Under the pieces are notes generated by a model. That model was given only the letters and a program-made list of their open reading frames with translations, had not been told where the DNA came from and made no database searches. From an uncultured Candidatus Saccharibacteria bacterium (GTDB taxonomy: Bacteria > Patescibacteriota > Saccharimonadia > UBA4664 > CAZOQX01): a stretch of DNA of 64,000 bases. Position numbers and translations under genes: made by a program. Shown here one piece after another: positions 1,291-56,965 of this stretch. Position 1 is the stretch's first letter. Each line of letters begins with the position of its first letter. Where the stretch lies: positions 17,256-81,255 of the forward strand of contig CAZOQX010000001.1 in NCBI GenBank assembly GCA_964582465.1, read 5' to 3'.

Positions 1291-1394
1291 GGCCTATTAT
1301 GACGGCTTAGTCCTCTACATAAAAGCCTCATGCTTGCTTGATTTGCTGGCTTAGCTTAGGGTAGAAATGTCTAGCACCTTTTTCGAGCCAGGGG

Positions 1395-7815: not shown

Positions 7816-7870
7816 AAGCGTTCCATCCTAGTAAGTATAAAGTAGGCCCGACGCTTTGAGCAAAGCATGT

Positions 7871-8626
7871 CTACGACAGCCCCTCTAAAAGGTCGGCGTT
7901 GCTGAAACTCCTGTGCTCAATCTGCTCCCATTGATTCGAAGATAGGGTGATGTCCCAGGGATTGATAGAACGCATCCAAGCCATAGTTTCGCCAGGCGCG
8001 CTGTTTAATTTCTGGGGGTCGTGACGCCTGGTGTAATGTAAAATCTGGCAATTATAGATGTGATCGTAGGGGTGCTCACTCCAATCTACCTTGTACCACT
8101 TATCTAAGGGCATACGCTCTAAAAGGACTCGAAAGGCCCATATAACTTCCCCGTGACACACCACAATCGCCCCAGGCATATCTTTCTTAGTCAGGCTCTC
8201 TAAAAAAAGGTTTATGCGCAGGCAAAGCTGGGCCATTGATTCGCCACCCGAAGGGATCCAATAAAACGAATCTGCCTTGCGACCCTCTAGTACTCGGCGT
8301 TCATGTGATGTCAGCTTCTCCAACTCGCCCCATTCCCGTTCACGTAGAGCGAATTCCTTCGACCAACGGGCCTCCTCCAGCCCCAAGTAGGCCGCGGTCT
8401 CACTGGCTCTAACATACTCGGAAGTAAAGTAGTGCGACATGCTCGGCGCATTACCTTTGATCCATTTGCCGGCTGCCTTGGCTTGTTCCTGTCCCTTTTT
8501 CGTCAAGCGGCTGTTTCTACCGCTCTGGTAGGCTGGGAGGTTTGCGCTCTCACGAGCTAGGTTATGTGCATGGTTCTCCTCACTTTCGCCGTGCCTTACT
8601 AAAATTAGTTCTACTGGCAGATTCAT
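7871..8626 (-). CDS. Histidine phosphatase superfamily protein (phosphoglycerate-mutase-like)
   Basis: LILVRHGESEEN (RHG catalytic motif), a later SGGES motif and VVCHGEVIW (second catalytic His). The start was moved to the internal Met (MNLPVELILV) to give an ATGA overlap with the upstream GT2 stop. The ORF track runs 7871..8659. Confidence 0.7.
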   Translation of the reverse strand: MNLPVELILVRHGESEENHAHNLARESANLPAYQSGRNSRLTKKGQEQAKAAGKWIKGNAPSMSHYFTSEYVRASETAAYLGLEEARWSKEFALREREWGELEKLTSHERRVLEGRKADSFYWIPSGGESMAQLCLRINLFLESLTKKDMPGAIVVCHGEVIWAFRVLLERMPLDKWYKVDWSEHPYDHIYNCQILHYTRRHDPQKLNSAPGETMAWMRSINPWDITLSSNQWEQIEHRSFSNADLLEGLS

Positions 8627-9579
8627 ACCGACCCATACCTTTTTACCCAGTGATCCCAAAAAGCCCGAGTTATTAAGCGGAGGTACTTAAAGTGATCCTT
8701 GCGATAACGCCAAAAAATCTTTACTAGCTCCTTGCTTAATTTTTTGAACATTACCCCCCACGCCAGAAGCTTCCAGGGCCAATTAACATATTTTTTTACA
8801 AATAGCAGATTATTACGAAATACATAGTATAAATAGCGGGGGGAATTCATGCCCAGTGTTTGCGATACGTGATGGATTAATAGTGCCTTTGGATCGTAAA
8901 GTAGATCGAAGCCGGCGGCGGCTAGCCTTACCGACAAGTCGGTGTCTTCCCAGTAAACAAAGTAGTTTTCATCGAAGGTGCCGACCTCTTTAATAACCGA
9001 TAAGCGCAGTAGAACACAGGCGCCGGTTAAAAATTCTGTTTTGCTAAGCTCCTTGGTTTTAAGATCCTTGAGCAGCACCGGCTTGGTGCCTCCAAACCCG
9101 CGCGGTTTAGGGACCCCATTGTGCCAGCCCTCCCCGCGTTTCAAATTTATGGTGCCCCCGGCGTACCACAGTGGCTTACCGGGTAGGTCGTTGATGACTG
9201 TCGGGCTTACCCCCGCAGCCCTCGGATTGTTTTCCATGTCGTCGACCAACCTGGTAAGTGTGTTTGGTTGAAGCACAGCATCGTTGTTAAGCGGCATCCA
9301 GTAATCATAGTTGGCCAGTCCGCCGACCTTGAGTGCTTGATTGTGGCCGGCGCCGAAGCCCAAGTTACGAGGATTTCGGATTAGCCGTACAGTTTTGTCT
9401 GAGATTTCGAGGGCGGGGTCAGAGCCATTATCAATCACCACCACATCAAAATTGGTATGGTCTTGTTTTTTGAGACTGGCGAGGCATTCCAGGGTTTCTT
9501 CATTATTGTTCCAATCTAGAATAGTAATTAAGACTCGGGGCTGCTTTACAGGTGTCATTTGGCTTCTACGGGCTCCCAT
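8623..9579 (-). CDS. Glycosyltransferase family 2
   Basis: N-terminal VLITILDWNNNEETLECLASLKKQ...VVVIDNGSD GT-A motif. Confidence 0.8.
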   Translation of the reverse strand: MGARRSQMTPVKQPRVLITILDWNNNEETLECLASLKKQDHTNFDVVVIDNGSDPALEISDKTVRLIRNPRNLGFGAGHNQALKVGGLANYDYWMPLNNDAVLQPNTLTRLVDDMENNPRAAGVSPTVINDLPGKPLWYAGGTINLKRGEGWHNGVPKPRGFGGTKPVLLKDLKTKELSKTEFLTGACVLLRLSVIKEVGTFDENYFVYWEDTDLSVRLAAAGFDLLYDPKALLIHHVSQTLGMNSPRYLYYVFRNNLLFVKKYVNWPWKLLAWGVMFKKLSKELVKIFWRYRKDHFKYLRLITRAFWDHWVKRYGSV

Positions 9580-10205
9580 TTTTTCGATTTAGAATCGAAC
9601 TTTTTGATCGCCTTGGCCGGAATTCCAGCTATCAACAGCCCCGGCCCAAAGGATTTGGTGACGATAGCTCCGGCGGCCACTACGACTCCAGTACCAAGTT
9701 TTACCCCGTCCAGAATCGTACAGTTAGCAGCTATCCAGCAGTTCTCAGCGATCTCTATACCCAGTGAAGTTTCTCCCTGCTCCTTATATGGCCGGTCAGC
9801 CGCATCAAAATTATGGTTGCTTGAGACTAAGATTGAACCAGCTGCGATCATTGTGTTAGCGCCAATCTTTACCCCGCCCTGACCGTAAACCATCACCCGG
9901 TGTCCAACAAAAGAATGGTGTCCGACTTCGATCCACCCCTTATGCGCCTCCAGTAAAGCAAATTCTCTAATTACTACGTGATCACCGATCGTAATTCGGC
10001 TACTCGGGCTGCCCGCTCCATTTAATACGGCATAATCGTCAATCAGGCATTTTGTTCCGATTTTAATCCGGCGTGGATTCATCAGCTTAGCCCGACCGAT
10101 GGTACTCAGCCGGCCCAGCTTAGCCAGCCGCCACTGCCATAAGACCAAAGTGCGCAGCCAAAGTGCCAGCTTTCTCGGCCTAGAGAGGAAAAAGTTGGTA
10201 TACAT
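9555..10205 (-). CDS. Hexapeptide-repeat (LbH) acyl/acetyltransferase
   Basis: Repeating [LIV]G-x-x-x-x hexapeptide units (IGDHVVI, IGANTMIAAGSIL, LGTGVVVAAGAIV). Typical of sugar O-acetyltransferases. Confidence 0.8.
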   Translation of the reverse strand: MYTNFFLSRPRKLALWLRTLVLWQWRLAKLGRLSTIGRAKLMNPRRIKIGTKCLIDDYAVLNGAGSPSSRITIGDHVVIREFALLEAHKGWIEVGHHSFVGHRVMVYGQGGVKIGANTMIAAGSILVSSNHNFDAADRPYKEQGETSLGIEIAENCWIAANCTILDGVKLGTGVVVAAGAIVTKSFGPGLLIAGIPAKAIKKFDSKSKKWEPVEAK

Positions 10206-10253
10206 AGTTAGTTCTCAAAATGAGTTAACATCATGGTAGGATAGCATGTTCCA

Positions 10254-10919
10254 CTAAACCTTGCGAAAGACCACACTGCCCCAAGCGTCGGGGATGGCGA
10301 TTGGTGACTCAGGCTTGTCATTTAAGAATTCATTAACCGCCCGCGAGCAAGCCCAATTGGATTCTGGGCTGTTGTAGTCATGCACGAAGATGTAACCGCC
10401 CTTGCTGACCCGGTCGTAAAAGAATTTCAAACCTTCTAGAGTCGGTTCGTACTTGTCGAAGTCCAGCACCACGAAAGCAAACGGTTCCTTCTCTAAGCCC
10501 TTGGCGGTGCCGGGGAAGAACCCCTGCCTGATCACGATGTTCTTTTTATCACCTATGGTGGCGAGAACGCTCTCCGCGGAAGTATCCTTAAAACGCTCGT
10601 CCGTCCTAGTGTCCGAATCACGCTCATCAAAGCCGGCGAAAGTGTCGAACAAGTAGAATTTTCGTCCTGGCATTTGGCCGTGAACAAACTTGCTCAGCCG
10701 CCCTTGGTAAACGCCACATTCCGCCAGTGAGCCTGTGATCTTTTCTTTCTCGATCGTTTCCAAAGCCAGTAGCATCGCGCCATAACGGACGGGGTCGTTG
10801 CCAGCCCTCACTATCAGTTTGCGCCGGTCATCTGACAGATATGGCACCATGAACCAACGGCTGGCCAGTTTGTCTATTAGGGTGGAGAAGCCCGGCAGAT
10901 TCTTGAGTTTAAAAGGCAT
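10254..10919 (-). CDS. TylF/MycF-family SAM-dependent O-methyltransferase
   Basis: Macrocin-O-methyltransferase-like motifs: GSLAECGVYQGRL and YIFVHDY near the C-terminus. Confidence 0.7.
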   Translation of the reverse strand: MPFKLKNLPGFSTLIDKLASRWFMVPYLSDDRRKLIVRAGNDPVRYGAMLLALETIEKEKITGSLAECGVYQGRLSKFVHGQMPGRKFYLFDTFAGFDERDSDTRTDERFKDTSAESVLATIGDKKNIVIRQGFFPGTAKGLEKEPFAFVVLDFDKYEPTLEGLKFFYDRVSKGGYIFVHDYNSPESNWACSRAVNEFLNDKPESPIAIPDAWGSVVFRKV

Positions 10920-10936
10920 ACTTGATTACCTTACCA

Positions 10937-11746
10937 TTATTTTTCATCAGCGAGCAGTTCTTCGTCAATCTCCTTATAGCGCTGACGGACGTCCACTCCT
11001 CGCTGCCTTTCCCATAGTTTCAAGTAGGCCACTAAGCGGTAAAACGCCATCAATAAAGCCAAGACTAAACCTATAAATCCGTCTTTATAACCCGATTTTT
11101 TAACATAGCTGAATATAAATTCTCTGATGGGTTTGACAAGGATCATCCGGCGGCGGAATTTTACGCTACCAGCCTCCAGCTGAGAAGCTTCTAAATCCGT
11201 ATAATTATTTAGTTTCGTCACGAAATGGCGCAGGTCATAAAAATTAAAATGAACGACCCCGTTGTGCAAATGGCCGACCTGACCCTTGGTCTCCATAGTT
11301 TCATGTACGTCGCCGCTGTGCCGGCCGTCGGAACGGAATAATCGCAGATGCTCTTCCGACTGCCACCAGCCGCCGTGCTTAACCTGGAAACCAAAAATAT
11401 AGGGTTTAGTAGGAATGCTGAACCCCCAGTAGTGGTCCTGCTCGATTGCGTTTAGGATATCAGTGCGAAGGTCGTGGCTGATTCTTTCGTCGGCGTCGAT
11501 TGAAAGGATCCACTCACTCGTTACTTTTTTAAAGCCGTAATTTTTTTGGTTAGAAAAGGTATCGAATTTTCGATTGAAGACTTTGTTAGTGTATCGCTGG
11601 GCAATTTTTTCAGTTTTATCGGTTGTTCGGGCGTCTATAATGACCACAACTTCATCACAAAAAGAAAGACTTTTGAGGCAGCCCTCAATTAGTTGCTCTT
11701 CATCTTTGGCAATCACTACCGCCGAGATACTGGATTTTTTTGGCAC
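10937..11746 (-). CDS. Glycosyltransferase family 2
   Basis: ISAVVIAKDEEQLIEGCLKSL...VVVIIDARTTDKT GT-A N-terminal motif. Confidence 0.8.
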   Translation of the reverse strand: MPKKSSISAVVIAKDEEQLIEGCLKSLSFCDEVVVIIDARTTDKTEKIAQRYTNKVFNRKFDTFSNQKNYGFKKVTSEWILSIDADERISHDLRTDILNAIEQDHYWGFSIPTKPYIFGFQVKHGGWWQSEEHLRLFRSDGRHSGDVHETMETKGQVGHLHNGVVHFNFYDLRHFVTKLNNYTDLEASQLEAGSVKFRRRMILVKPIREFIFSYVKKSGYKDGFIGLVLALLMAFYRLVAYLKLWERQRGVDVRQRYKEIDEELLADEK

Positions 11747-11787
11747 GGGCTCCTCACACTAGATAGTGGAATTATAGCAAACCGCTT

Positions 11788-12642
11788 TTAGCTAGAATAA
11801 GGGCGGTTAAGGAATCGTTTGGCTGCATACTTGAGTTTCATTATAGCAAAGCCTACCTGAATAGCGGTGATTGCTAGCAACGCCGCAACAGGATTGAAGT
11901 GCCGCCTCACGTAATCAACGCGGTTTGCGAGCATAGTACGGTTCATCAATTTGCGCTCTGGGGCGTTGTTTTCGGTGCTTTTACCACCATGATGAGTCAA
12001 CACAGCATCGGGCAAATAAACGATTTTTTTGCCGGCTTCTCTTAAGGCATGGCCGAGCTCCACGTCCTCGACGTACATAAAATATCTCTCGTTGAAGCCG
12101 CCCACCGCCCTAAAGTCTTCGACGCGAATCATGAAAGCGGCCCCGCTGAATGATTCTACAGGCGCCGGTTTTTTTATTTCTGAGGGGCGATACCAGGCGG
12201 TCATATGGCCGAATAAGTATTCTGAGGCGACGTTTCCCAGGTTGGGCAGGCGGGCAATATTATTTTGCACGGATCCATCGGTTTCGAGCAGCCGTGGCAC
12301 TACGGCACTGATGTCGTGGTGTGTGTCCAGGTATTTGGCCATCTTGCTGATGGATTTAGTGAGGTCGAGCGAATCAGGGTTGATGAAGGCGAGGTATTCG
12401 CCTTGAGCTTCCCGAACGCCCATGTTACAGCCCTTGGCAAAGCCGAGGTTTTGATTATTGCGGATCAATTTGATCTCAGGGAATTTGCTCGCGATTAGAT
12501 CAGCCGACCCGTCGCTGGAAGCATTATCAACTACGATGAACTCGCGGCTTGGGTTTGAGCCCATGAGCGAATTAATACAGTCAATGGTAAAGCCAGCCGA
12601 ATTGTAAGTGACCTGGATGACCGAGACCTTGGGCCGGATCAT
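11788..12642 (-). CDS. Glycosyltransferase family 2
   Basis: VSVIQVTYNSAGFTIDCINSL...FIVVDNASSDGS GT-A motifs. 4-nt overlap with wzx. Confidence 0.8.
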   Translation of the reverse strand: MIRPKVSVIQVTYNSAGFTIDCINSLMGSNPSREFIVVDNASSDGSADLIASKFPEIKLIRNNQNLGFAKGCNMGVREAQGEYLAFINPDSLDLTKSISKMAKYLDTHHDISAVVPRLLETDGSVQNNIARLPNLGNVASEYLFGHMTAWYRPSEIKKPAPVESFSGAAFMIRVEDFRAVGGFNERYFMYVEDVELGHALREAGKKIVYLPDAVLTHHGGKSTENNAPERKLMNRTMLANRVDYVRRHFNPVAALLAITAIQVGFAIMKLKYAAKRFLNRPYSS

Positions 12643-14099
12643 TTTACGCCCGCCAATTCCTTCAGCTCACGCATCGAAAACGAGCGCAGCAGGATATTTA
12701 TAACTAGGTAGGCGCTCCCTCCAGCGAGAACGCTAATTACAACCGGCCAACCAGCAGCATTCAAGGTATACACCAGCACCCCCATTAACCCAGCTGCAAG
12801 TAAGGTGCGCCATAGGGTTGCTGGCCAAACCATGACCCCGATTTGTCGCTTGAGCAGATACAAATAGGTCAGCATTATCAGGGCTTCCGAAGCGAGTGTG
12901 TTATAGGCGGCGGCCATATAGCCAAAATGGGGGATCAAAGCAAAGTTCAGACTAACGTTTAAGACTAGACTCGCAATATTTACGTATAAGGCGTCTTTGT
13001 GGCGGTCCATGGCGATAATTGCTAGACCAAGCAGGGTATTAAAGAAACTGATGGCGCCAGAGACCATCAGAACTTTAAGCGGTGCCGAAGAGGCGGTGAA
13101 GGCGTGGCCACCGATCAAAAGGGCGATCGGCAAAGACAGAATTACTCCGCCAACGGCCATGGGTGCACCGACGAAAAGCAGAAAACGTCCTGCCTTTGCA
13201 ACGATATTGGCAAATTTTTCTTTATTCTCATGATTACGGGCGAGCAGAGGGAAAATCGTGGTACCGAAAATGACTGGAAAGATTAGCATAATATCTAAAA
13301 GCTTGTAGGCTGCTGCATAAATTCCCACATCATGGGCTGGCTTAAGTAGGGAAAGGATGATCGTATCAACCTTGAAATAAATACTGCTTACGACGTAGGC
13401 TAGCCCGAGCGGAACTGATATCCAAAAAAGCTTGTAGAAACGGCTCAGATCAACCTGGCGCCGCTCGAAACGGAATCTCTCTCGCTTGGCGAGCGCCCAG
13501 AGTACCGCAGCAAAGGCAATGTTACCGAGAACTGAAGCTACAACCAGGGCAAAGATGCCCAAGTGCAGCCAGATTACAGCGATTATGAGGATTAAATTGC
13601 CAACCCGGCTGGTAACTTCAGCCACCGACACCAGATAGTTCTTCAGTCTCACCTGGAATAGCGAAGATAGCGAAGTAATAACGAGGTTAGAAAAAAGAGT
13701 AGTGGAAAGTATCGCGATACCGAGCTTAATAGTGAAGTCGTGCCGGTATAACAGCGCTCCGAGCAGAATCGAGCCCAGCAGCAACGGTACCGTAAGCAGC
13801 GTTCGTCCCCAGAGCGAGGATGAAATGAGCGCCGGCAGTTTTTCCGGTTCTCGCGACGCTTCTTTCGTGATCATGGTGGTTATGCCCCAGTCGCTCAGGT
13901 TATAAAGAAAAGCTACGAAGGTAAGAATAACAGTTAGACGGCCGTAACCGGAGGCACCAAGGTACCGGGTTTGCAGCGTTATCGAGAGTAACCCGATCAC
14001 AAGCAGAAGCAAGCGACTGGCAAATTGGGCTGCGGTGTTATAAAAGACTCGGCTAGATGTGCTTTTGGAGAAGAGGGTTTTGAGATTGGGGATGGTCAC
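12639..14099 (-). CDS. wzx: Wzx-type polysaccharide flippase (MOP superfamily)
   Basis: 486 aa with about 12 TM helices. Architecture is typical of the polysaccharide biosynthesis protein/flippase family, within a glycan locus. Confidence 0.75.
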   Translation of the reverse strand: MTIPNLKTLFSKSTSSRVFYNTAAQFASRLLLLVIGLLSITLQTRYLGASGYGRLTVILTFVAFLYNLSDWGITTMITKEASREPEKLPALISSSLWGRTLLTVPLLLGSILLGALLYRHDFTIKLGIAILSTTLFSNLVITSLSSLFQVRLKNYLVSVAEVTSRVGNLILIIAVIWLHLGIFALVVASVLGNIAFAAVLWALAKRERFRFERRQVDLSRFYKLFWISVPLGLAYVVSSIYFKVDTIILSLLKPAHDVGIYAAAYKLLDIMLIFPVIFGTTIFPLLARNHENKEKFANIVAKAGRFLLFVGAPMAVGGVILSLPIALLIGGHAFTASSAPLKVLMVSGAISFFNTLLGLAIIAMDRHKDALYVNIASLVLNVSLNFALIPHFGYMAAAYNTLASEALIMLTYLYLLKRQIGVMVWPATLWRTLLAAGLMGVLVYTLNAAGWPVVISVLAGGSAYLVINILLRSFSMRELKELAGVK

Positions 14100-14169
14100 A
14101 AGTTTAGCTTTTTAAGCTAAACTCATTGTACCGTGACATCAAACTCCATGCCAATGTCAGGGTCACGGC

Positions 14170-16374
14170 CTATTGTACAGCTACCACTAAGTAGGTATCA
14201 GGGTTGTTAAATGCGCCACCTACGCTACCTTCAAGCACGGGTCTAAAGTATTCTTGATAGCGACCAGAACCAACATTAGTTGGTGCATTAAATGTAAACG
14301 TAAACTTAGCAATCTGTCCGGGTTGAACAATGTGCTGGCTAGTCGCGAGAGTGCTGCCATCTGCCTCGTAGACGGCAGTAAATGTTACAGCCGGACGATT
14401 ATGGTTAGGCCACTGCGAGCCAAAAACGCTTGCACGATTATCTGGATGTGAGGTGGCTAGATGTACTGGCAATGCACCCTGCACCGATCCGTATGAAGCA
14501 TCATCATACCAAGGCACATTGCCAGCATTTTTATATTCTAGGAAAGCCGCCGAGGAGCCGCCCGCGTTAAGTGTGGGCCAACTGGATTCAGCTGCGTACT
14601 GCGCTACATACTGCGCAGTAGTTAAACTGATACCAATAAAGGTGCCTGGATCGTTAAAGTTAATACCGGAACTACCTTCAAGCACGGGAGCCAGATACTC
14701 GCGGTAGAACCCCCCCGGAGCGTTAATTGGCGCAGTAAAAGAGTAGATAAATTTGGCAATCTGGCCTGGTTGCACCACATGTTGGTTGCCGGCCAGGGTG
14801 GACCCATTTGCCTCGTAGACGGTAGCGAAGTTGAGCGCTGGACGGTTGTGGTTTGCCCATCCGTCGCCAAAAAGACTGATGCGGTTGACTGGTGCAGCCG
14901 TCGCCAAGTGGACCGGCAGAGCACCCGGCGCTGGGACATAAGAGCTATCATCGTACCAGGGCATATTACCGGTATTCTTGTACTCCATGTACGACTGGGC
15001 CGAGCTGCCAGCGGTCAGAGACACCCAGTCAGATTGGCCGGCAAATTGCGCTGTATAATGGGCGGCCTGCACGTTGATTACCAGGTAGGTATTTGGTTCA
15101 TTAAAGGATCCACCTACACTTCCCTCAAGTACCGGCCTAAAGTACTCTTGGTACACCCCAGCGCTTAAATCATCCTGGATGACTAGGTTAAAACTAAACT
15201 TCACAATCTGTCCGGGTTGAACAATGTGCTGGCTAGTCGCGAGAGTGCTGCCATCTGCCTCGTAGACGGCAGTAAATGTTACAGCCGGACGATTATGGTT
15301 AGGCCACTGCGAGCCAAAAACGCTTGCACGATTATCTGGATGTGAGGTGGCTAGATGTACTGGCAATGCACCCTGCACCGATCCGTATGAAGCATCATCA
15401 TACCAAGGGCTATTACCTACATTTTTATATTCCAGAAATGCTGCCGATGTGTTGCCTGGTAGCGAGCTAACCCAATTTGACTGGCCGGCAAATTGAGCTG
15501 CATAGGGTGCTGCCAGAGTGGAGCCAAACCAATCACTGAATAGTCGCCAGAAATTGCGATTGCCATAGCTCGAGCAGCCATCGCCTGTGCCGTATAAGTT
15601 ATTTAGCGCCGCCTGGTTGGGGACGTAGGGGGTGTAGATGTAAAGATTGGCCGTGGCTTGGTTCTGGATGAAGACGGTTTCATAGCCGCAGGCACCATTG
15701 GGGTTATAAAGAATGTTGTTATTTTGCCCGGTGCGATAGGAGTAGTTGCCAGGATTATTGTAGTAAAGCCGGAATTGCCAGGCAGCTTTGGTCACTTGGT
15801 TGGCAAAACCGAAATATTGGCTATCACAGGCAGCTCCATCTGGGCAGCCATAACCGGTGGCCGTCCTGTATTGATTTGTCCAAGGCCAGTCATCCGTGAT
15901 CAAGCTAGACTCTTTTTGGATCAGCACGATCAACACCTCGGGATTAATAGAATATTGTTGGCTTGCGTTATAGATAATTTGAGCAGCGCTAATAGCTCCA
16001 CTGGGAATCGGCTGTCCGCCGTAGTTATTAGCGTGGGTGGAGGTATTTTCGTAATAATCTTTCAGGCAGGTATAGGGGGGCGGAAAGTTGGGATCAAGAT
16101 TTTTGCGTAGGATATTGCCGTTATAGGTGTGGCCACCATAGGTTCCATAAAAGGGCTGATTGCCTCCTGTGTCGCAAGTTGGCACCTTGGCGTTTAGGAA
16201 GTTTTGGATATCACTTACACCCATAGCTGCAGTGTTTGTAAAAATTTGATCATCGATAATTCTGCCCGGGATGAAGTCGGAGCCGGTGACGGCTTTGGCA
16301 TGGCTAGTCGAAACGAGTGAAACCAAAACGCCAAGCGCTATCAGAAAGCCTAGCTTAAAGAGTCGCGATTTCAT
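14170..16374 (-). CDS. Secreted 734-aa surface protein: N-terminal domain of unknown (possibly glycan-hydrolase-like) function followed by three ~130-aa beta-rich repeats
   Basis: Signal peptide MKSRLFKLGFLIALGVLVSLVSTSHA. Three repeats begin YAAQFAGQS(N/D)WVS... and end ...VLEGSVGG(S/A)FN(E/N)P(N/D)TYLV. The outer two repeats are identical at nucleotide level over 205 bp. Confidence 0.7.
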   Translation of the reverse strand: MKSRLFKLGFLIALGVLVSLVSTSHAKAVTGSDFIPGRIIDDQIFTNTAAMGVSDIQNFLNAKVPTCDTGGNQPFYGTYGGHTYNGNILRKNLDPNFPPPYTCLKDYYENTSTHANNYGGQPIPSGAISAAQIIYNASQQYSINPEVLIVLIQKESSLITDDWPWTNQYRTATGYGCPDGAACDSQYFGFANQVTKAAWQFRLYYNNPGNYSYRTGQNNNILYNPNGACGYETVFIQNQATANLYIYTPYVPNQAALNNLYGTGDGCSSYGNRNFWRLFSDWFGSTLAAPYAAQFAGQSNWVSSLPGNTSAAFLEYKNVGNSPWYDDASYGSVQGALPVHLATSHPDNRASVFGSQWPNHNRPAVTFTAVYEADGSTLATSQHIVQPGQIVKFSFNLVIQDDLSAGVYQEYFRPVLEGSVGGSFNEPNTYLVINVQAAHYTAQFAGQSDWVSLTAGSSAQSYMEYKNTGNMPWYDDSSYVPAPGALPVHLATAAPVNRISLFGDGWANHNRPALNFATVYEANGSTLAGNQHVVQPGQIAKFIYSFTAPINAPGGFYREYLAPVLEGSSGINFNDPGTFIGISLTTAQYVAQYAAESSWPTLNAGGSSAAFLEYKNAGNVPWYDDASYGSVQGALPVHLATSHPDNRASVFGSQWPNHNRPAVTFTAVYEADGSTLATSQHIVQPGQIAKFTFTFNAPTNVGSGRYQEYFRPVLEGSVGGAFNNPDTYLVVAVQ
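14310..14514. repeat. 205-bp intragenic direct repeat, copy 1 (100% identical to 15204..15408)
   Basis: Identical string caatctgtccgggttgaacaatgtgctggctagtcgcgagag...catcatcataccaagg seen by eye at both positions. The middle repeat copy is diverged. Confidence 0.85.
15204..15408. repeat. 205-bp intragenic direct repeat, copy 2
   Basis: See copy 1. The perfect identity suggests recent gene conversion or recombination. Confidence 0.85.
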
Positions 16375-16973
16375 TTTGTCACCGTGAAGTCTTGAGTGAA
16401 CGAGGCCGAGCTGCTACCAGCTTGAGCGATGACTTTGACTGTCCAATTACCGGCTGAAAATTGATCAAGGGGAACGCTGAGGACGCAGCTGTACTGGGTG
16501 CCCGTAAAGGTGAGCGTACCAGGTTTTACAATATCGCTCTGCCCGGCCTTAGAAAAAGTCGCCTGGCAGCTGCTGGGAGTGCCGCCGCTGACTTGCGCTC
16601 TCACATCCACGGTGCCATTGCTGGTTTGACCGGCGCCGGTCACAAAAATGGACAAGCTACTCGAAGTTGTTCCACCGTTTGAGGTTTGCTTGGACTCGTC
16701 CTGAATACTGATGGTAGATTTAGCGGCGTCGCCCGGATTGCTACTCTTAGTCTGGGCGGTACCGTTTTTGGTACTATCACTGGCTTGAGTGGGGTTGCTT
16801 GTAAGGGACGGCCCTGGCTTAGCCTTACCATGATTCGAATACCAAAGATAACTCGCCGTCGCAATACCCGCCAGAGCTACGGCGATCAGGGCAGAGATAA
16901 CTAATTTTTTTTGCGCAATTTTGCGGATCATTTCGCCCCTACTTTTTTGTTTCATTAGCATAACCAAAATCAA
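16371..16973 (-). CDS. Membrane-anchored Ser/Thr-rich protein with C-terminal Ig-like beta domain
   Basis: N-terminal TM (LVISALIAVALAGIATASYL), a long S/T/G/N-rich linker and a C-terminal beta-rich domain. Stop/start ATGA overlap with the 734-aa surface protein gene. The start may be an internal Met. Confidence 0.5.
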   Translation of the reverse strand: MILVMLMKQKSRGEMIRKIAQKKLVISALIAVALAGIATASYLWYSNHGKAKPGPSLTSNPTQASDSTKNGTAQTKSSNPGDAAKSTISIQDESKQTSNGGTTSSSLSIFVTGAGQTSNGTVDVRAQVSGGTPSSCQATFSKAGQSDIVKPGTLTFTGTQYSCVLSVPLDQFSAGNWTVKVIAQAGSSSASFTQDFTVTK

Positions 16974-17037
16974 TCTAATTATAATCAGTCAAAGCTCCAA
17001 ATTCAAGATGGCTCAAGCAATGATAGTTTGGCTTAAA

Positions 17038-17907
17038 CTAGTGGCCGTCCTTCACGATGTCTAGCAGGTACTGGCCATAACCACTTTTGACGAACTTTTG
17101 GGCTAATTTCTCGAGCTGAGCAGCATTAATGTAACCTTCCCGCCAGGCAATTTCTTCGATGCAGCCAATCTTCAAACCTTGGCGTTCCTCGATGATTTGG
17201 ACGAATTGCGAAGATTGCATCATCGAGGCGAAAGTGCCGGTGTCGAGCCAGGCGGTGCCGCGGTCGAGCACCATGACCTCGAGCTTGCCCTTCTTCAGGT
17301 AGGTGTTATTAACGTCGGTTATCTCCAGCTCGCCGCGACCGCTCGGCTCAAGATTTTTAGCAATTTCAACCACGTCGTTGTCGTAAAAGTAGAGACCGGT
17401 GACTGCGTAATTAGTTTTGGGCTCATCTGGCTTCTCCTCGATGGAGATCGCCCGGTTGGCCTTATCGAACTCCACGACGCCGTAGCGCTCGGGGTCATCC
17501 ACGCGGTAGGCGAAAATCACCCCGCCGTCGGTGTCGGTATATTTCTTTAATTGGTCGCCAAATCCGACACCGTAGAAGATGTTATCGCCAAGAATCATGG
17601 CGACTTTGTCTTTACCAATAAATTTCTCGCCGACAATAAAGGCTTCGGCTAGACCACCTGGCCTCTCCTGGGCCTTGTAGCTGAATTTGCAGCCCAGCTC
17701 TGAGCCGTCGCCCAGCAATTTCTCAAAGCTAGGCAGGTCATGCGGCGTGGAAATGATTAAAATGTCACGAATGCCCGCGAGCATCAGGGTCGAGAGCGGG
17801 TAATAGACCATTGGCTTGTCGTACACCGGCATAATCTGCTTGGAAATCGCGAGCGAGGCCGGCCTCAGCCTCGTCGCCACCCCGCCGGCTAGCACTATGC
17901 CCTTCAT
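17038..17907 (-). CDS. rmlA: Glucose-1-phosphate thymidylyltransferase
   Basis: [55 protein letters not shown] is near-canonical RmlA. Confidence 0.9.
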
Positions 17908-18845
17908 TTATAGAGACTTTCAAAGACGTTGTTTACGACTGTGCGCTGACGTGAGGCCTCGGCGGTTTGCTCTAGTACTTTTTGCACCTCGGCCTTGTCC
18001 AGGCTTTTTAGATTTTTGCCGAGCTCGATCACAATTTCCTCCAGCCGCTCCTTATAAGGATTGGCCGTCACGCCGAATTCTTGCAGTTTGGTCACATCGA
18101 GCACGGTGTCGACGCGTTTGTTGGGGGTTAATTTATCGAGTTCGGCCTTGGAAATTTTCTCTGGCTCCAGATCGGGCAGGATGTGTTTTTTAATTAACAG
18201 GCCAATATCGTAGGGCGTGGTCCAGCCGGTGTTTGCGACATGGTAGATACCGGTGGCGTCTTTCTCGATCAGTTGGTCGGTCCAGTCCATCAAATCTTCA
18301 ATCACCGTTCCGGAGTTAGGCGTGTCGATGAACTTGGAGAAGGTCAGCATTTTTACCAGCATGTTCTTGTGGTTGACCTGAGCCGACACTGGTTGGCGCG
18401 GCCGCAGTATGAGGCATTTGAAATTGTCGGAGCGTTCAAAGCCAATCATCTCCTCGGCCCACACCTTAGTCCAGCCGTAGTAGGAGTCGGGGTTCGGGAG
18501 GTCAGTTTCCACCTTGGCGTCCTTGCCGCTGACGCTGGAGTAGATGCAGCCACTGGAGTAGTGAATAAAATAAATGTTCTTTTCGTCGGCGACTCGTGCA
18601 ATATTGGCTGCCCCGAGCACATTAACAGCAAAAGATTCTAGGCGGTGCAGACCGCACCACTCCAGGTTGGTTTTAGCAGCGGTATTAATAATGATGTCGG
18701 GCTGGGCTGACTCGACGGCCTGCTGTACTTCCTCGATGTGGCGGATATCAGCCTCGGCTACGCTGGCATCATAGTCCGAATCCCGCCAATGCTCTAGGTA
18801 GAAGTTAGCAATCTGCCCATTACCGAAAATTAGTACCTTTTTCAC
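17904..18845 (-). CDS. SDR-family NAD(P)-dependent sugar-nucleotide reductase/epimerase, RmlD-like, with C-terminal ~80-aa extension
   Basis: Degenerate N-terminal Rossmann motif (IFGNGQIA) and a YGWTK catalytic Y-x3-K. Position between rmlA and rmlB fits dTDP-4-dehydrorhamnose reductase. The C-terminal tail is unusual. Confidence 0.55.
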
Positions 18846-18859
18846 ACTGCCTCCTTGGT

Positions 18860-19888
<1,029 letters not shown>

Positions 19889-28014: not shown

Positions 28015-28719
28015 ATGGGCATTTTAGCATCAATGATAGTCTCGTTTTGCTATTATGAAATAATGCCAGAAGCTAAGGTAGTTTATTTGGTGCGTCACGG
28101 CCAGAGCGTGGATAATGCGGCTCGTGTGTTTCAGTCGCCAGATTCCCCCCTTAGTGGGATCGGTCAGGAGCAGGCGAAGAAACTAGCCCAAAGGCTTTCT
28201 GGGCTTACCTTTGACGCTCTTATTAGTAGCCCCTTCGAGCGAGCCAAGGGAACAACAGCTTTTATTACTGATCGTATCGGGCTAGTCACTGAGTACTCTG
28301 AACTTTTCGTTGAGCGGCTTAAGCCTAGGGGAATCTCTGGCAGGCCTTATGCTGACAAAGAGATCCATGGATTATGGCGAAGTTGGGAAGAGAGTCTTTA
28401 TACACCAGGCACGAGAGTCGAAGATGGTGAGAATTATGATGATCTGCTCGAAAGGGCCGATAAGGCTTTGGCGTATCTCAAAAACAGGCCTGAAGAATCA
28501 ATGCTGGTTGTCACGCATGGTGATTTTCTGAGAACAGTGTTGGCTAGAGTACTGCTAGGTGAACTTTTTTCAGGAGAAGCGCTTAGAAACATTCAGAAAG
28601 TTGCACTTATTGATAACTCCGGTATTACGGCGTTACGTTTTCAGAAAGCATATGATGAAGTTGCAAGGTGGAGACTTTGGATTTATAACGACCATTCACA
28701 TTTAGCTGACCCAACTTGA
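28015..28719 (+). CDS. Histidine phosphatase superfamily protein
   Basis: VVYLVRHGQSVDNAARVF (RHG motif) and VVTHGDFLRTVLA (second catalytic His). The start may instead be the internal MPEAK Met at 28063. Confidence 0.75.
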   Translation: MGILASMIVSFCYYEIMPEAKVVYLVRHGQSVDNAARVFQSPDSPLSGIGQEQAKKLAQRLSGLTFDALISSPFERAKGTTAFITDRIGLVTEYSELFVERLKPRGISGRPYADKEIHGLWRSWEESLYTPGTRVEDGENYDDLLERADKALAYLKNRPEESMLVVTHGDFLRTVLARVLLGELFSGEALRNIQKVALIDNSGITALRFQKAYDEVARWRLWIYNDHSHLADPT

Positions 28720-28743
28720 AAATCGTACCTCAAGCCGAGCCAT
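28715..28743. repeat. 29-bp perfect direct repeat, copy 1 (cttgaaaatcgtacctcaagccgagccat)
   Basis: Identical to 30520..30548. It overlaps the stop codon of the histidine phosphatase gene. An adjacent small hairpin GGCTTA-tt-TAAGCC sits at about 28753..28766. Confidence 0.8.
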
Positions 28744-28772
28744 GTATAATTCTTGGCTTATTTAAGCCATTC

Positions 28773-30440
28773 TCACAAATTCACTATCGCTGCCTGCCCG
28801 TCCGTAAAGAACTGGTCGCCGCTAGCGTTTTTGCCAAGTTGTGGTTCTACCACTCGGAGATAAGAAATGCCCATGAGGCCGAGTGATCGAACAATATAGT
28901 CCCGTTCGGCATCAACATTGGGGTTTATATGGTGAGTTGGCAGGTAGCCTTGACTGGCCAGCTCCACACCCTCATCTAGGCTGGCCGTGGCTACCCAAAC
29001 CAACTGTCCATTGGGCGTAGCATAGTTGGTCTGCCAGAGCCTAGTATGATGGCGCTGACGTAGAGTCCGCCCACTAGTGGGTTGCTCGAAGGCAAGGTCT
29101 TGGGGTTTACCGTTCAAGTAAGAGGGCGTCACGGGAGCGGTTAAATACTGGCGGTTCTGCAGCGCCACTCCAATCGCTTTTAGGGTGTTAGCCAGGGTCG
29201 ATGGGTCTGCCTTATACCAACCGTGAGACGAGAACAACTGCTCAATTTGCTCTCTTGAGCCCAGGTAAATGAAGCTAATTGGCTCCATCCGCGTCCCGGT
29301 CAGAGTCTCACTGTATATTGGCAGAGCTTGAATGGTCGAAGCAGTTATCGCGGGTAAGGTCTGGTAATTAGGCGTGGCTGTAATTGGTTCCAGCTTAATA
29401 AAGAAAGAACTGAGCCCGATTGACCAAACAATTAACATTACCGGAATCGTAGCGAGAGCTTTTCTACCAGTTGACTGTTTTTCTCGGCTGTAAAAGCGCC
29501 GCCAGATTTCATAGCCAGTTATCAGTACGGTTAACAGGAAGCCGCCGAAGAGGATGCTGGCCAACACGTCGCTCGGATAGTGTACGCCCAGGTAAATCCG
29601 GCTTAGAGCCACCAAGCTAATTGCCACCACATAGCCTAAAACTACGGCTATTTTAGCTAAATGCGATTTGTAGGCCCGAATCAGAAAATAGGCTAACAGG
29701 CCAAATAAGACGGTAGCGCGCAGGACGTGCCCACTAGGAAAGCTGAGCGTATCCTCACGAATCAAGCTAAGGGTTTGCTCTGGCCGCGCCCGACCTACTA
29801 GGTGCTTAATGACAAAAGTGCTGACTTCTTCAAGGACAAAGGCAAGCCCAAACAGCCAGGCAGCCCCGCGCTGGCGCTTGATCCATAGCCAAATGCCTGC
29901 AAGCAGTGTCAGCAGCAAAGCTGTTTCCCAGTTAGCTAAGAAGGTCACCATTTGGAAAAAGCCGTTTTGCTGCCCACTCCGAATACTGGGTACGAGGTTA
30001 ACCACTCTTTGATCAATCCGGGTAATCCCGGTCTTTAGCACTACTTGAATTAACAACTGGAGGAATTCCGCTAAAAGGCCAGCGGCCATTATTACTCCCA
30101 CCGTCATGACTAGCCCTCGTGGTGATTTGGGATTAAGACGATCGCTAAGCCAGTTCATAACAGCTGTTTGGCGCAGCTTGCGCACGTTATCATTGCCAAT
30201 GGCACCTCGCCAGGCCGAGACTAAAACCGAGCCAATGATTTGAAGAGGTTTTCGAAGTGCTAAAACTGCTAAGTAAACCACTGTCACCAGCAGTAGATTT
30301 TCGATCAGGATGCCGAGCACAAAAACGGGCGGCGAGCTGAAGACATCGAGCTTTTTTATGAGCCAAAGGTTAAAGCCGGCCGCAAGCAGCAAACCTAGAC
30401 CGAGTAAGCCGTAGCCGGTTGTTTTAATATGGCGGTGCAT
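28773..30440 (-). CDS. PAP2-superfamily phosphatase (membrane) fused to a large C-terminal extracytoplasmic domain
   Basis: PAP2 motifs KxxxxxxRP-like (VGRARPEQ), PSGH (SFPSGHVLRATV) and SRxxxxxHxxxD (SRIYLGVHYPSDVLAS) in the N-terminal TM half. About 300 aa of non-PAP2 domain follow a further TM. Confidence 0.8.
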   Translation of the reverse strand: MHRHIKTTGYGLLGLGLLLAAGFNLWLIKKLDVFSSPPVFVLGILIENLLLVTVVYLAVLALRKPLQIIGSVLVSAWRGAIGNDNVRKLRQTAVMNWLSDRLNPKSPRGLVMTVGVIMAAGLLAEFLQLLIQVVLKTGITRIDQRVVNLVPSIRSGQQNGFFQMVTFLANWETALLLTLLAGIWLWIKRQRGAAWLFGLAFVLEEVSTFVIKHLVGRARPEQTLSLIREDTLSFPSGHVLRATVLFGLLAYFLIRAYKSHLAKIAVVLGYVVAISLVALSRIYLGVHYPSDVLASILFGGFLLTVLITGYEIWRRFYSREKQSTGRKALATIPVMLIVWSIGLSSFFIKLEPITATPNYQTLPAITASTIQALPIYSETLTGTRMEPISFIYLGSREQIEQLFSSHGWYKADPSTLANTLKAIGVALQNRQYLTAPVTPSYLNGKPQDLAFEQPTSGRTLRQRHHTRLWQTNYATPNGQLVWVATASLDEGVELASQGYLPTHHINPNVDAERDYIVRSLGLMGISYLRVVEPQLGKNASGDQFFTDGQAAIVNL

Positions 30441-30519
30441 ACCATTAAGTTTATTCTTCCTAGGCTTAATTGACGAGCTACGATAACCCGTATTGTGGCT
30501 TAACTCAAGCCGCTGGAGC

Positions 30520-30548
30520 TTGAAAATCGTACCTCAAGCCGAGCCATA
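30520..30548. repeat. 29-bp perfect direct repeat, copy 2
   Basis: Same 29-mer as 28715..28743, located in the 5' leader of the PAP2 gene. A related hairpin GGCTTAACTCAAGCC lies immediately upstream, and a local 9-mer ctcaagccg is reiterated. Confidence 0.8.
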
Positions 30549-30620
30549 AAGAACGGGAAGATACCCCAAGTCCACCTTCGGGGCTCATCAAAGCTATGCT
30601 TGTGATGTAGAATATGTGGC

Positions 30621-31676
30621 ATGAGGGTTAGGCCGAAATATTTTGGAAGTATTGCGGTTTTGGCGGTTCTTTATGTTATCGCAGCCAAATTAGGGTTATC
30701 GCTAGCATTTAGCATTAAGCAAGTCACTACCGTGTGGCCGCCTAGTGGGCTGGCTCTAGCGGCCTTGCTTCTATTTGGACTCGATCTCTGGCCGGGCGTG
30801 GCCATTGGGGCCTTTGCAGCTAACTTCCTAACTAATGAGCCGGCATGGGTGGCGGTACTGATTGCGGTTGGCAACACCCTGGAGGCCCTGGTGGGTGCGA
30901 GTCTTCTAAAACGAATCGTTGATTTTAAATCAACCTTACATCGAGTGAAGGGGGTGGTTGGGTTAGTTTTTTTGGCAGGGGTCTTAAGTACGATGGTGGC
31001 TGCCACCATTGGCACTACAAGTCTACGGCTGGGTCATTTATTAACAAGCGGAGCTCAACCGAGTGCCTGGCTTCTTTGGTGGTTTGGTGACATGACCGGA
31101 GTATTGCTCTTTGCGCCTTTTCTGCTGGTGTGGCTAAGCAATTGGCGCCAGGTTACTCGCCAAAAACTTCTCGAATTTGGCGCCTTACTTATGGGGACAT
31201 TAGTGGTGGCCGAGATTACCTTTTTTGGCCAGCTGAAGGTTTTAGGAAACCGGCCGCAGGTTACCTACTTAATTTTTCCTTTCGTGATTTGGGCCGCTTT
31301 CCGTTTTAGACAGCTGGGCGTGACGGCGGTTAGCTTAATTACAGCTACTGTGGCGATACTTGGAACGATCAACGGCTTCGGCCCTTTTCTGGGGGTAGGG
31401 ACACCGCAGCAACAGCTGGTTACCCTACTGCTTTACATCATTTTCATGACCATCAGTGGTCTGTTGATGGGTGTGGCCGTGTTGCAGCGCGATAACTCCG
31501 AATCCAAGCTTGTGCAGCAAGCAGCCGCCCTACAAAAAGCCCGCGGCAAAATCTTAAAGGAACTTAATGCTAAATCGGCTAACGAGGAGCGCCTTGAGGC
31601 TTCGAATGAGCGAATTACGAGCATACTCAGCCACTTGCTAGAGGAAAACCCCACTCGGCCCACCTTTAAAAAGTAA
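30621..31676 (+). CDS. MASE1-domain integral membrane sensor-like protein with C-terminal coiled coil and no output domain
   Basis: N-terminal ...KQVTTVWPPSGLALAALLLFG matches the MASE1 signature (VTPIWPPSGIALAALL). About 8 TM helices. The C-terminal ~70 aa are helical and charged. Confidence 0.6.
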   Translation: MRVRPKYFGSIAVLAVLYVIAAKLGLSLAFSIKQVTTVWPPSGLALAALLLFGLDLWPGVAIGAFAANFLTNEPAWVAVLIAVGNTLEALVGASLLKRIVDFKSTLHRVKGVVGLVFLAGVLSTMVAATIGTTSLRLGHLLTSGAQPSAWLLWWFGDMTGVLLFAPFLLVWLSNWRQVTRQKLLEFGALLMGTLVVAEITFFGQLKVLGNRPQVTYLIFPFVIWAAFRFRQLGVTAVSLITATVAILGTINGFGPFLGVGTPQQQLVTLLLYIIFMTISGLLMGVAVLQRDNSESKLVQQAAALQKARGKILKELNAKSANEERLEASNERITSILSHLLEENPTRPTFKK

Positions 31677-32004: not shown

Positions 32005-32214
32005 ATGCAAAAGATTGCTACCCGCGTATTTATCTACTCTTCAATTGCTTTTGGTATTATCGGAATTTTACTAGTGATAGCATCCCCCGGGCAGGGCGAA
32101 AAAAGCTCAGGCCTAAACATCGCATTGATGAAGCTGTTGATGGCGACGGGCTTTATTGTTTTGCCCTCGTTTGCACTAAGTGTTGCCAGCAAGTACCTAA
32201 ACGGCAAGTCTTAA
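32005..32214 (+). CDS. Small two-TM membrane protein (69 aa)
   Basis: Two clear hydrophobic helices. Followed by a G/C-rich segment and T-run (ggggcgttttttt) at about 32250..32268. Confidence 0.4.
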   Translation: MQKIATRVFIYSSIAFGIIGILLVIASPGQGEKSSGLNIALMKLLMATGFIVLPSFALSVASKYLNGKS

Positions 32215-32293
32215 CCGCTAGCTTTCAAGATCGTATCTCGGTGAGGGGCCGACGGGGCGTTTTTTTGTTATGCTTGCCCGATGGCTGATTTAG

Positions 32294-32695
32294 TTGAACA
32301 ATTGGCTTATCTGCCTAGAAGCACCTGAGGAGCCCAAAGTGAATGAGATTGTGGACGCGATCAAGCAGTTGCACCAGCCAATCGAAGGGTGGCGCGAGTG
32401 CGAGCACAATACCCTCGGCGAATGGTGCCCAAGCGTGGAGATAGGGAAACACGGCCCTTGTTGCGGCGACGACCCGGCTGGCGATTACAGCCGAAGTGGC
32501 AGCTCACAGGGGGGGCGAATTCCCGTCCCGGTCTGCGGGCACTGTCTGGTGGGATGGGTCGGAGCTGATCTGCCCGACGACATTGATCGCGAGGCTGAAG
32601 TGGCCTGGGTGGGCGATCGGAGCGATGGATGGTGGCACCGGGTCTGGCCGTGCCCGACGGTACAACTTCTGAATCCCGAGGCACCAATTGGGTAA
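32294..32695 (+). CDS. Hypothetical Cys/Trp-rich protein in GC-rich (~65%) segment
   Basis: ORF with CxxC-like pairs (GPCCGDD, CGHC). Composition differs sharply from the neighbours. The start is uncertain. Confidence 0.3.
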   Translation: MNNWLICLEAPEEPKVNEIVDAIKQLHQPIEGWRECEHNTLGEWCPSVEIGKHGPCCGDDPAGDYSRSGSSQGGRIPVPVCGHCLVGWVGADLPDDIDREAEVAWVGDRSDGWWHRVWPCPTVQLLNPEAPIG

Positions 32696-32993
32696 GAAGG
32701 CTGTCGAGAAACTAGCAAGTCGCATTCTGCGCGAGCACCGCCCAATTCCGATTTCTGACGGTGACGTCCTCGTTCATTCTCCTCACTGTCGGGCTGAAGA
32801 AAGAGAGGCCGCCAAGGAAAGCCCCACTTCGACTAATAATCTCGAAGAATGGGCCGTCTATTGGGGCAAGCCATGCCAGGATCCAGGTTACCCCGACCCC
32901 TTCTGCAGTAAGTGCCTGGATGGGAATGAGCTGAATTACGTTGCCTGGCCGTGTGACGCCGCCCGCTTGGGACAGTTTGTACTGGGCCGCTGA
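32688..32993 (+). CDS. Hypothetical Cys-containing protein in the same GC-rich segment
   Basis: Overlaps the previous ORF by 8 nt and has multiple Cys (HCRAEE, CQDPGYPDPFCSKC). Coding status is uncertain. Confidence 0.3.
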   Translation: MGKKAVEKLASRILREHRPIPISDGDVLVHSPHCRAEEREAAKESPTSTNNLEEWAVYWGKPCQDPGYPDPFCSKCLDGNELNYVAWPCDAARLGQFVLGR

Positions 32994-33152
32994 CGCGCTG
33001 AGCTTCCCTAGATCACCTGTACGGTCGGCACACTGTACGGGTGTCGACTTGAGGTTTTAATTGGTTGAAGCTTCAAGTCGCTATGTGGTAACTAATGGCC
33101 AGGTCCTTAGTATGTCGGTCTTTTGTTATACTGGGACCAATAGGAGAGACCT

Positions 33153-56940: not shown

Positions 56941-56965
56941 GCAGCTTATTGCTATAATACTTGTT

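Follow-up and report, generated by a model that had tools for sequence, protein, structure and literature searches.

The stretch of DNA analysed here (64,000 nt, hereafter the window) comes from an uncultured Candidatus Saccharibacteria bacterium from soil and carries, on its minus strand, a gene for a membrane protein with PAP2 and LssY_C domains (PAP2-LssY), which is bracketed by two perfect copies of a 29-nt direct repeat. The gene is flanked by a convergent His_Phos_1 gene and a divergent gene for a MASE1-domain protein. The features of the locus are given below; the repeat copies and their cores are listed in the sense of the PAP2-LssY gene, and L003 is a contig from a second genome described further on.

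28015-28719, plus strand: left-flank His_Phos_1 gene (Pfam, 2e-31), convergent with PAP2-LssY and outside the conserved unit
28715-28743, minus strand: direct-repeat copy downstream of PAP2-LssY (copy 1), 29/29 match to the other copy, beginning 30 nt past the stop in gene sense and overlapping the stop of the convergent His_Phos_1 gene
28716-28740, minus strand: conserved 25-nt core of the downstream copy, GCTCGGCTTGAGGTACGATTTTCAA in gene sense, gapless 20/25 match to both L003 copies with ACGATTTTCAA invariant
28755-28768, no strand: palindrome GGCTTATTTAAGCC, between the PAP2-LssY stop and the downstream copy, 11 nt after copy 1, forming a 6-bp hairpin in the RNA fold
28773-30440, minus strand: PAP2-LssY gene, 555-aa membrane protein (Pfam PAP2, 7e-23; LssY_C, 9e-50)
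30496-30510, no strand: palindrome GGCTTAACTCAAGCC, between the upstream copy and the gene, 8 nt before copy 2
30519-30547, minus strand: direct-repeat copy upstream of PAP2-LssY (copy 2), beginning 107 nt before the ATG, within the intergenic region that separates PAP2-LssY from the divergent MASE1 gene
30520-30544, minus strand: conserved 25-nt core of the upstream copy, defined by the same alignment to L003 as the downstream core
30621-31676, plus strand: right-flank gene for a MASE1-domain membrane protein (Pfam, 3e-44), divergent from PAP2-LssY and outside the conserved unit

The PAP2 motifs KxxxxxxRP, PSGH and SRxxxxxHxxxD are readable in the translation of PAP2-LssY, and the PAP2 part of the protein shows weak NCBIfam similarity, far under the cut-off, to undecaprenyl-diphosphatases and PgpB. 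A search of the whole window revealed two exact plus-strand copies of the 29-mer CTTGAAAATCGTACCTCAAGCCGAGCCAT (ATGGCTCGGCTTGAGGTACGATTTTCAAG in gene sense) and no third copy at up to three mismatches, while the chance expectation for such a repeat is 0 matches (100 shuffles). Apart from an intragenic 447-nt tandem repeat, the 29-mer is the sole long exact direct repeat in the 64 kb, and outside the 29 nt the identity between the copies drops at once to background on both sides. The original prediction, made from the sequence of the window, had described a segment of 1.8 kb that holds only the PAP2 gene, and the unit bounded by the repeats was indeed found to measure 1804 bp with PAP2-LssY as the only gene inside. 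The first copy, said to overlap the stop of the histidine phosphatase gene, spans the final base of a Thr codon and the TGA stop (28717-28719). The second, said to lie in the 5' leader of the PAP2 gene, lies 78 nt upstream of the ATG (30440) and 73 nt upstream of the MASE1 gene (30621), in a shared divergent region of 180 nt; both copies are exact, but the second occupies 30519-30547 and not 30520-30548, as had been given with an offset of one nucleotide. The GGCTTA..TAAGCC palindromes described beside each copy are both present (28755-28768 and 30496-30510), and GGCTTAACTCAAGCC includes a third, partial copy of the inner 12-mer of the repeat (30501-30512, 11/12).

It is hardly credible that the repeat is an assembly artefact. 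The length of 29 nt equals the k-mer size of some assemblers; however, a misjoin does not make two copies, and the separate Logan assembly of run SRR9179560 contains a 5.6-kb contig that runs through both copies and is identical to the window. The same architecture is also seen in the unrelated sample and assembly of L003, where the two copies differ by two mismatches. A tandem-duplication artefact, which had been raised alongside the original prediction, is rejected on the grounds of the sharp edges, the identical Logan contig and the L003 locus.

Among 5.8 billion proteins, the closest relative of PAP2-LssY (P0002) shares just 60% amino acid identity with it and is encoded on L003, a 6.2-kb contig from a soil metagenome (run SRR5487326). 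The L003 gene is likewise bracketed by a direct repeat, GCTCGCCAT[A/T]TGGGACGATTTTCAAACTATTTATGC[T/A]TAG, the copies of which are identical at 38 of 40 positions and have the same orientation relative to the gene as in the window. Aligned in gene sense, the window 29-mer and the L003 repeat match without gaps, with 20 of 25 positions in common and ACGATTTTCAA invariant; this core match exceeds shuffled sequences by z = 5.9 and 8.0, in the sense orientation only. Chance was thus ruled out by shuffles for the window repeat, the L003 repeat and the core match alike. The upstream copy begins 107 nt before the ATG in the window and 91 nt before it in L003, and the downstream copy begins 30 and 53 nt after the stop, respectively. 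The coding DNA of the two genes is 60% identical, and 20/25 is reached by only 6% of the 25-nt coding windows; the core is conserved between the genomes as strongly as the best-conserved coding segments. For the other non-coding flanks, three comparisons between the window and L003 gave p values of 0.3 to 0.8 and one gave p of about 0.03, which derives from a single 9-mer. The neighbours of the L003 gene, a P-type ATPase gene and a MerR-HTH/DUF4325 gene pair, are unrelated to the His_Phos and MASE1 genes of the window. Since both neighbours and flanks are unrelated, it is exactly the order repeat-gene-repeat that is common to the two genomes by these comparisons. Judged from the same alignments, purifying selection acts on the 25-nt core, which is linked to the gene by both its position and its orientation.

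Immediately beyond the downstream repeat copy of L003 (L003:3765-3838), three copies of TTATGCATAG/TTGCATAG and a near-consensus promoter (TTGACA-16 nt-TACAAT) were observed. These elements lie upstream of the MerR-HTH gene that is paired with the DUF4325 gene, and they are probably the operator region of that regulator itself.

That the repeat is the start of a small protein gene or a leader peptide we consider very improbable. On the strand opposite to the gene, TTG AAA ATC GTN CCN reads as MKIVP, two of the differences between the genomes are synonymous in this frame, the copy downstream of the gene encodes MKIVPQAEPCIILGLFK in the window and MKIVPNGEPAIILWLGK in L003, and the TTG overlaps the His_Phos stop as TTGA in the window; in gene sense, the window offers ATG GCT CGG (MARLEVRFSS). 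The gene-sense ATG, however, is not kept in L003 (CTA/CTG), and two of five differences at third codon positions correspond to the chance level. The lengths of the small open reading frames (ORFs) are inconsistent, amounting to 56 and 9 aa in the window and, in L003, to 39 aa for the downstream copy and 15 aa from the TTG of the motif in the upstream copy (the listed 42-aa ORF begins further upstream). Where the tails of these ORFs run into the PAP2 gene, the frame differs between the two genomes, and inspection of the sequence revealed no suitably spaced Shine-Dalgarno motif. Small ORFs were therefore rejected in every frame for their inconsistent lengths, one frame having an in-frame stop in the window as well.

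How the copies differ within and between the two genomes bears on their history. The identity blocks end differently, at 29 nt in the window and at 40 nt in L003, and the positions that differ between the genomes are identical within each genome (near-identical in L003). The G–C content of the gene matches that of its host in both cases (50.8 vs. 51.0% in the window; 46.5 vs. 47.9% in L003), which marks the gene as an old resident; a perfect repeat then cannot be the relic of a single ancient insertion. A single ancient duplication would have decayed and does not account for identical copies. Together, the identity or near-identity within a genome and the sharp edges, found despite the host-like G–C content of the gene, point to repeated recombination at the site. 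It is quite improbable that the repeats are neutral by-products, generated by independent slippage or template-switch duplications or by tandem duplication followed by deletion. Spontaneous short duplications do occur, and these ones have no demonstrated function, but two independent origins of one architecture, with a common core and around one and the same gene, would be required; the traces of one ancient event, in turn, would no longer be legible at 60% coding identity.

The preferred interpretation, to which we assign a probability of roughly 40%, is that the two copies are att-like sites (attL and attR) of an excisable single-gene unit that carries no recombinase. As in att-flanked elements, direct repeats of tens of bp lie at both ends (29/29 in the window, 38/40 in L003), and the unit encodes no recombinase, PAP2-LssY being its sole gene. 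Recurrent recombination, either as excision and re-integration or as conversion, would account for both the conservation of the core and the identity within a genome, and it is for this reason that the cassette is preferred over the alternatives. Recombination between the copies would loop out a 1.8-kb circle carrying the gene and one copy of the site, with a small GGCTTA..TAAGCC palindrome on either side of that site, so that the palindrome-flanked site of the predicted circle would resemble an attachment region. The other copy would remain in the chromosome, and the reverse reaction could re-insert the circle. The activity would come either from a recombinase whose gene lies elsewhere in the genome or from the host's own recombination of short repeats. 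Through repeated cycles, or through gene conversion at the site, the copies would stay identical within a genome while the site drifts slowly between lineages. The predicted empty-site junction is TTAGCTGACCCAA-CTTGAAAATCGTACCTCAAGCCGAGCCAT-AAAGAACGGGAAGATACC, and the predicted circle junction is CAAGCCGCTGGAG-CTTGAAAATCGTACCTCAAGCCGAGCCAT-GTATAATTCTTGGCTTA. As to biological use, which we infer just as we do the recombination itself and its enzyme, the cycle might serve, for example, the reversible loss and gain of an envelope lipid phosphatase. That this amounts to a minimal mobile or excisable unit of Saccharimonadia-like bacteria, undescribed so far and composed of an envelope-lipid phosphatase gene and a site of about 25 nt, acted on by unlinked or host recombination and reversibly present or absent, is a doubtful proposition for the time being.

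Two explanations offered by the original prediction are affected by these results. The att-like duplication gains support from the recurrence in L003, the conserved core, the within-genome identity with sharp edges and the unrelated surroundings, whereas a transposon target-site duplication is rejected, as there is no transposase and the length of the repeat is not constant (29 nt vs. 40 nt). The recombination-prone repeat, suggested as another possibility, draws the same indirect support as the att-like sites, but the recombinase that would act on it was not found.

Several observations weigh against the interpretation as att-like sites. In searches of the entire 64-kb window against Pfam, PHROGs and NCBIfam, genes for a recombinase, a transposase or phage proteins were not detected, and L003 showed none either. 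No empty-site or circle junction was seen in the assembled sequence, where the exact MASE1 protein is carried by one contig only, which runs through both copies, and the closest MASE1 homologue lies in a different context. The independent examples are just two, the window and L003. A site-specific mechanism would, somewhat awkwardly, need a pre-existing target in an unconserved intergenic place of each genome, which is unusual. As read from the sequence, the core is not palindromic, as most recombinase core sites are. Finally, the similar distances of the copies from the gene also fit a regulatory element.

The main alternative states that the core is a cis-regulatory element marking both ends of the PAP2-LssY transcription unit, and we regard it as a tentative but real possibility. 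It might be a pair of DNA operators bound by one regulator, possibly looping the 1.8 kb, or an RNA element present in the 5' leader and at the 3' end, and the copies would be kept alike by selection and occasional gene conversion. In favor of such an element are the conservation of the core at the level of the best-conserved coding segments and the kept orientation and distance relative to the gene. The best promoter candidate found by eye (TTGAGT-17 nt-TATCGT, 30508-30480, 8/12) is located just downstream of the upstream copy, which would then occupy the usual position of an activator site. A small hairpin (UCGSC..GK-A-CGA) is preserved, one of its pairs having changed on both sides, a 15-bp hairpin in gene-sense RNA is possible at the downstream copy of the window (z = -5), and the downstream copy of L003 lies upstream of, and on the same strand as, a gene for a MerR-type regulator.

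On the other hand, the 15-bp hairpin uses His_Phos codons and is not conserved in L003, and the consensus fold of the four copies is merely a 5-bp hairpin of -2.65 kcal/mol. No Rfam family matched the repeat region (28500-30750, E ≤ 10), the only match at gathering score in the window being a tRNA. A promoter and terminator scan placed no site on either copy except for a promoter-like match at 28695-28723 (plus strand, 9/12), which overlaps the start of copy 1, and the repeat region as a whole has fewer promoter-like sites than shuffled sequences. There is no regulator gene common to both loci, and the downstream copy of the window is followed only by the antisense of His_Phos. Moreover, binding sites can vary to some degree, whereas here it is exactly at the positions where the genomes differ that the two copies of each genome are identical, and their edges are sharp. 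Selection on a binding site would not hold non-critical positions identical, so the pattern of the copies fits recombination or homogenization instead, and regulation leaves the within-genome identity unexplained unless conversion is added. The shared cis-regulatory RNA element of the original prediction retains the conserved core, position and orientation, but finds no Rfam match and no common fold beyond -2.65 kcal/mol; folding of the RNA around both copies, which had been proposed as a check, gave a weak 5-bp hairpin common to the four copies and the 15-bp hairpin in the window only.

Two more specific regulatory identities were tried and rejected. A terminator or attenuator on the conserved core is rejected since the fold is too weak, the 15-bp hairpin is without a U tail and absent from L003, and the scan calls no terminator. 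As for a promoter of the sigma-70 or ECF type within the motif, visual inspection of both orientations gave no consistent -10/-35 elements, and the one promoter-like match of the scan does not exceed the shuffle level. Whichever of the two roles applies, that of a recombination site or that of a control site, the comparison of the two genomes indicates that the repeat is a real, gene-linked element.

The survey for further copies covered 80 PAP2-LssY loci from species-representative genomes, nine metagenome matches to the motif and seven extra contigs with homologues of 53-57% identity. The 80 loci span Saccharibacteria, Peribacteria, Peregrinibacteria and other candidate phyla, as well as Micrococcaceae such as Pseudarthrobacter and Sinomonas. 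Flanking repeats were assessed by ungapped comparison of the upstream with the downstream flank, scored against shuffles. The scores were 29 for the window and 34 for L003, with shuffle maxima of 10 to 15, and about 45 other PAP2-LssY loci (≤57% identity) had no flanking repeats, their scores being within or close to the shuffle range. No motif was found near any other PAP2-LssY gene at 5 or 6 mismatches in 20, and among all loci examined L003 alone shares the bracketing with the window. The core pattern for genome-wide searching of copies is GCTCGNCNTNNGGNACGATTTTCAA. One weak gapped match each in L041 and L072 was regarded as chance.

According to a further alternative, the 29-mer belongs to a low-copy intergenic family of the REP, REPIN or MITE kind, evolving in concert, two copies of which flank the gene by accident. 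Families of this kind typically evolve in concert, the repeat has an internal palindrome (CTTGA-N10-TCAAG), short exact palindrome-containing intergenic repeats a few kb apart occur in other candidate-phyla loci (L046, L064, L080), and only about 6% of the genome was inspected if a size of about 1 Mb is assumed. We nevertheless consider membership in such a family unlikely. The remaining 62 kb of the window, and thus the whole 64 kb, hold no further copy of the motif even at up to 5 mismatches in 20, and about 0.75 Mb of related loci gave chance-level matches only. In both genomes the sole two copies seen flank the same orthologue in the same orientation. A metagenome scan with GCTCGNCNNNNGGNACGATTTTCAA returned nine single matches, which by a rough estimate is about the chance number, and one of them (L087) is intergenic. 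A widespread REP-like repeat, named at the outset as a finding that would overturn the original prediction, thus showed no spread in the 64 kb or in the related loci.

The matches and loci of the survey yielded some additional observations. Most of the metagenome matches other than L087 resemble high-GC coding sequence, as seen from their flanks (ORFs were listed for L087 only). The match in L087 (L087:1454-1478, GCTCGCCCGAGGGAACGATTTTCAA) is a single intergenic copy of the motif located 21 nt after an ABC-permease gene on an unrelated AT-rich contig, and it is indistinguishable from chance. Structured REP- or MITE-like intergenic repeats were observed at L046:5470-5600 and L046:8770-8880, at L064:3648 and L064:7574, and in L080; those of L064 and L080 are CCCGGGATGACA-type elements, and in L046 one of about 90 nt follows the PAP2-like gene immediately. 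L046/L047 and L055 resemble inverted duplicates of a single contig region.

With regard to mobile elements, viral contigs, phage records and plasmid records contained nothing informative on carriage of the gene or the motif, and the viral collection yielded neither a recombinase acting on the site nor a related element whose integrase uses it. On contig L097 (258-3727), a homologue of 57% identity adjoins, in divergent orientation, a gene for a large serine recombinase (Resolvase, Recombinase and Zn_ribbon_recom domains), followed by prophage-like genes (S24 repressor, HNH); flanking repeat and motif were looked for there, and none was found. L097 thus provides a case of the gene family at the border of a mobile element. 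Homologues with 41-51% identity to PAP2-LssY_C proteins of Saccharibacteria-like genomes occur in Micrococcaceae (Pseudarthrobacter, Arthrobacter, Sinomonas) and other metagenome-assembled Actinomycetes (L007, L012-L013, L016-L040), and the patchy distribution of PAP2-LssY_C is compatible with gene exchange between epibionts and their actinobacterial hosts.

As a single-gene unit flanked by direct repeats, the feature is of a kind already known. In the wzy locus of Salmonella Typhimurium, a cell-envelope gene unit of about 2.5 kb lies between 113-bp perfect direct repeats in intergenic DNA; it excises reversibly and in an attL-dependent manner, deletion leaves one repeat copy, and the circular form is detectable (PMC12074656). 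The unit described here resembles it in having a single envelope gene, perfect direct repeats and no recombinase inside, and differs in its shorter repeats (29-40 nt vs. 113 bp) and in that excision, circle and attL dependence were established experimentally for wzy, whereas here they are predicted from sequence. A further difference is that the repeat core is conserved here between genomes with just 60% identity in the gene. The microcin H47 island of E. coli (13 kb, long imperfect repeats) has been studied by PCR, and it still excises in a recA background and in mutants for all of the known site-specific recombinases (PMC5426353). It likewise is a small island flanked by direct repeats that encodes no recombinase, and together with the wzy locus it provides a precedent for the excision of recombinase-less direct-repeat units.

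Cis-mobilizable elements (CIMEs), such as those of Streptococcus thermophilus, and other integrative elements that lack an integrase of their own are bounded by attL and attR direct repeats of a few tens of bp, carry no integrase or excisionase and depend on a recombinase in trans; CIMEs are derivatives of related elements that bear an integrase and recombine at the same site, and the two occur together. One of the two repeats may reach into the 3' end of a host gene, which is also the position of copy 1 with respect to His_Phos. In contrast to CIMEs, no related integrase-bearing element or integrase was found here, and neither of the L003 copies overlaps a gene end.

A single gene between two similar short sites, with the recombinase elsewhere, is also reminiscent of integron cassettes, whereas the neighbours here are convergent and divergent housekeeping-type genes. 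An integron attC site was rejected for want of an in-register RYYYAAC/GTTRRRY core pair, a 57-141 bp imperfect palindrome, an intI gene and a co-oriented array; the GTTRRRY-like heptamers that can be read in the window are out of register with the copies, and L003 has none. The site shares with dif/Xer sites (IMEX, pdif) a length of about 28 bp, a conservation that splits 11-6-11 with one arm invariant, and the lack of fixed neighbour genes. However, pdif modules are bounded by sites in inverted orientation. A dif/Xer site was rejected, since the G–C skew is positive across the window, which is thus not a replication terminus, and the inner arms are not inverted repeats (only TCG/CGA in common). 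Looping operators (lac O1/O2, gal OE/OI, deo) are comparable in that one site occurs twice, upstream and downstream of the unit under control or inside it; the members of the known pairs are similar but not identical over 29-40 nt with sharp edges, and the regulator here is putative.

The neighbouring genes do not form a conserved context with PAP2-LssY. No His_Phos homologue was found beside PAP2-LssY in the other loci of the homology test, the closest MASE1 homologue (63%) lies in its different context without PAP2 or the motif, and conserved synteny was therefore rejected for the loci tested. A convergent His_Phos_1 gene is present at the PAP2-LssY locus of L095, which was outside the set of the His_Phos test. 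In the window, the 3' end of a His_Phos transcript (28700-28745) would bear the exact complement of the 29-nt stretch within the region upstream of PAP2-LssY (30441-30620); if both are transcribed, the His_Phos RNA and the RNA from upstream of PAP2-LssY could pair over 29 nt, an arrangement not seen in L003.

Elsewhere in the window, two overlapping cysteine-rich ORFs (32294-32695 and 32688-32993) lie under a local G–C peak (32200-33000; 58-62%, compared with about 50%); they have no match in Pfam, PHROGs or NCBIfam and may be foreign DNA. A long minus-strand cluster for cell-envelope polysaccharide (174-19852) contains several glycosyltransferase genes, two adjacent Wzy_C-type genes, genes for a flippase and dTDP-sugar enzymes, and a second His_Phos_1 gene (7871-8659). 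At the edge of a polysaccharide-synthesis cluster, a 734-aa ORF (14170-16374) with an Ig-like domain match harbors three tandem copies of the 447-nt unit (14295-15456, 63-93% identity) and resembles a surface protein with internal repeats. Ku and a full-length LigD (phosphoesterase, ligase and primase-polymerase) are encoded next to each other at 56095-59978 and make up a complete pair for end-joining repair, in what appears to be a small-genome Saccharimonadales bacterium.

Under either interpretation of the repeat, the element provides two junctions of exactly defined sequence, for which existing read sets can be screened. If the core is regulatory, the lineage would have a control element of its own, no less conserved than the catalytic motifs of the enzyme, and this would offer a rare handle on regulation in these organisms. 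If the copies are att-like sites, as we prefer, the locus would represent a recombinase-less single-gene cassette in an uncultured epibiont lineage of the candidate phyla radiation, where the biology of mobile elements is almost unknown, and it would suggest reversible switching of an envelope lipid phosphatase, which could affect host attachment, phage sensitivity or antibiotic tolerance.

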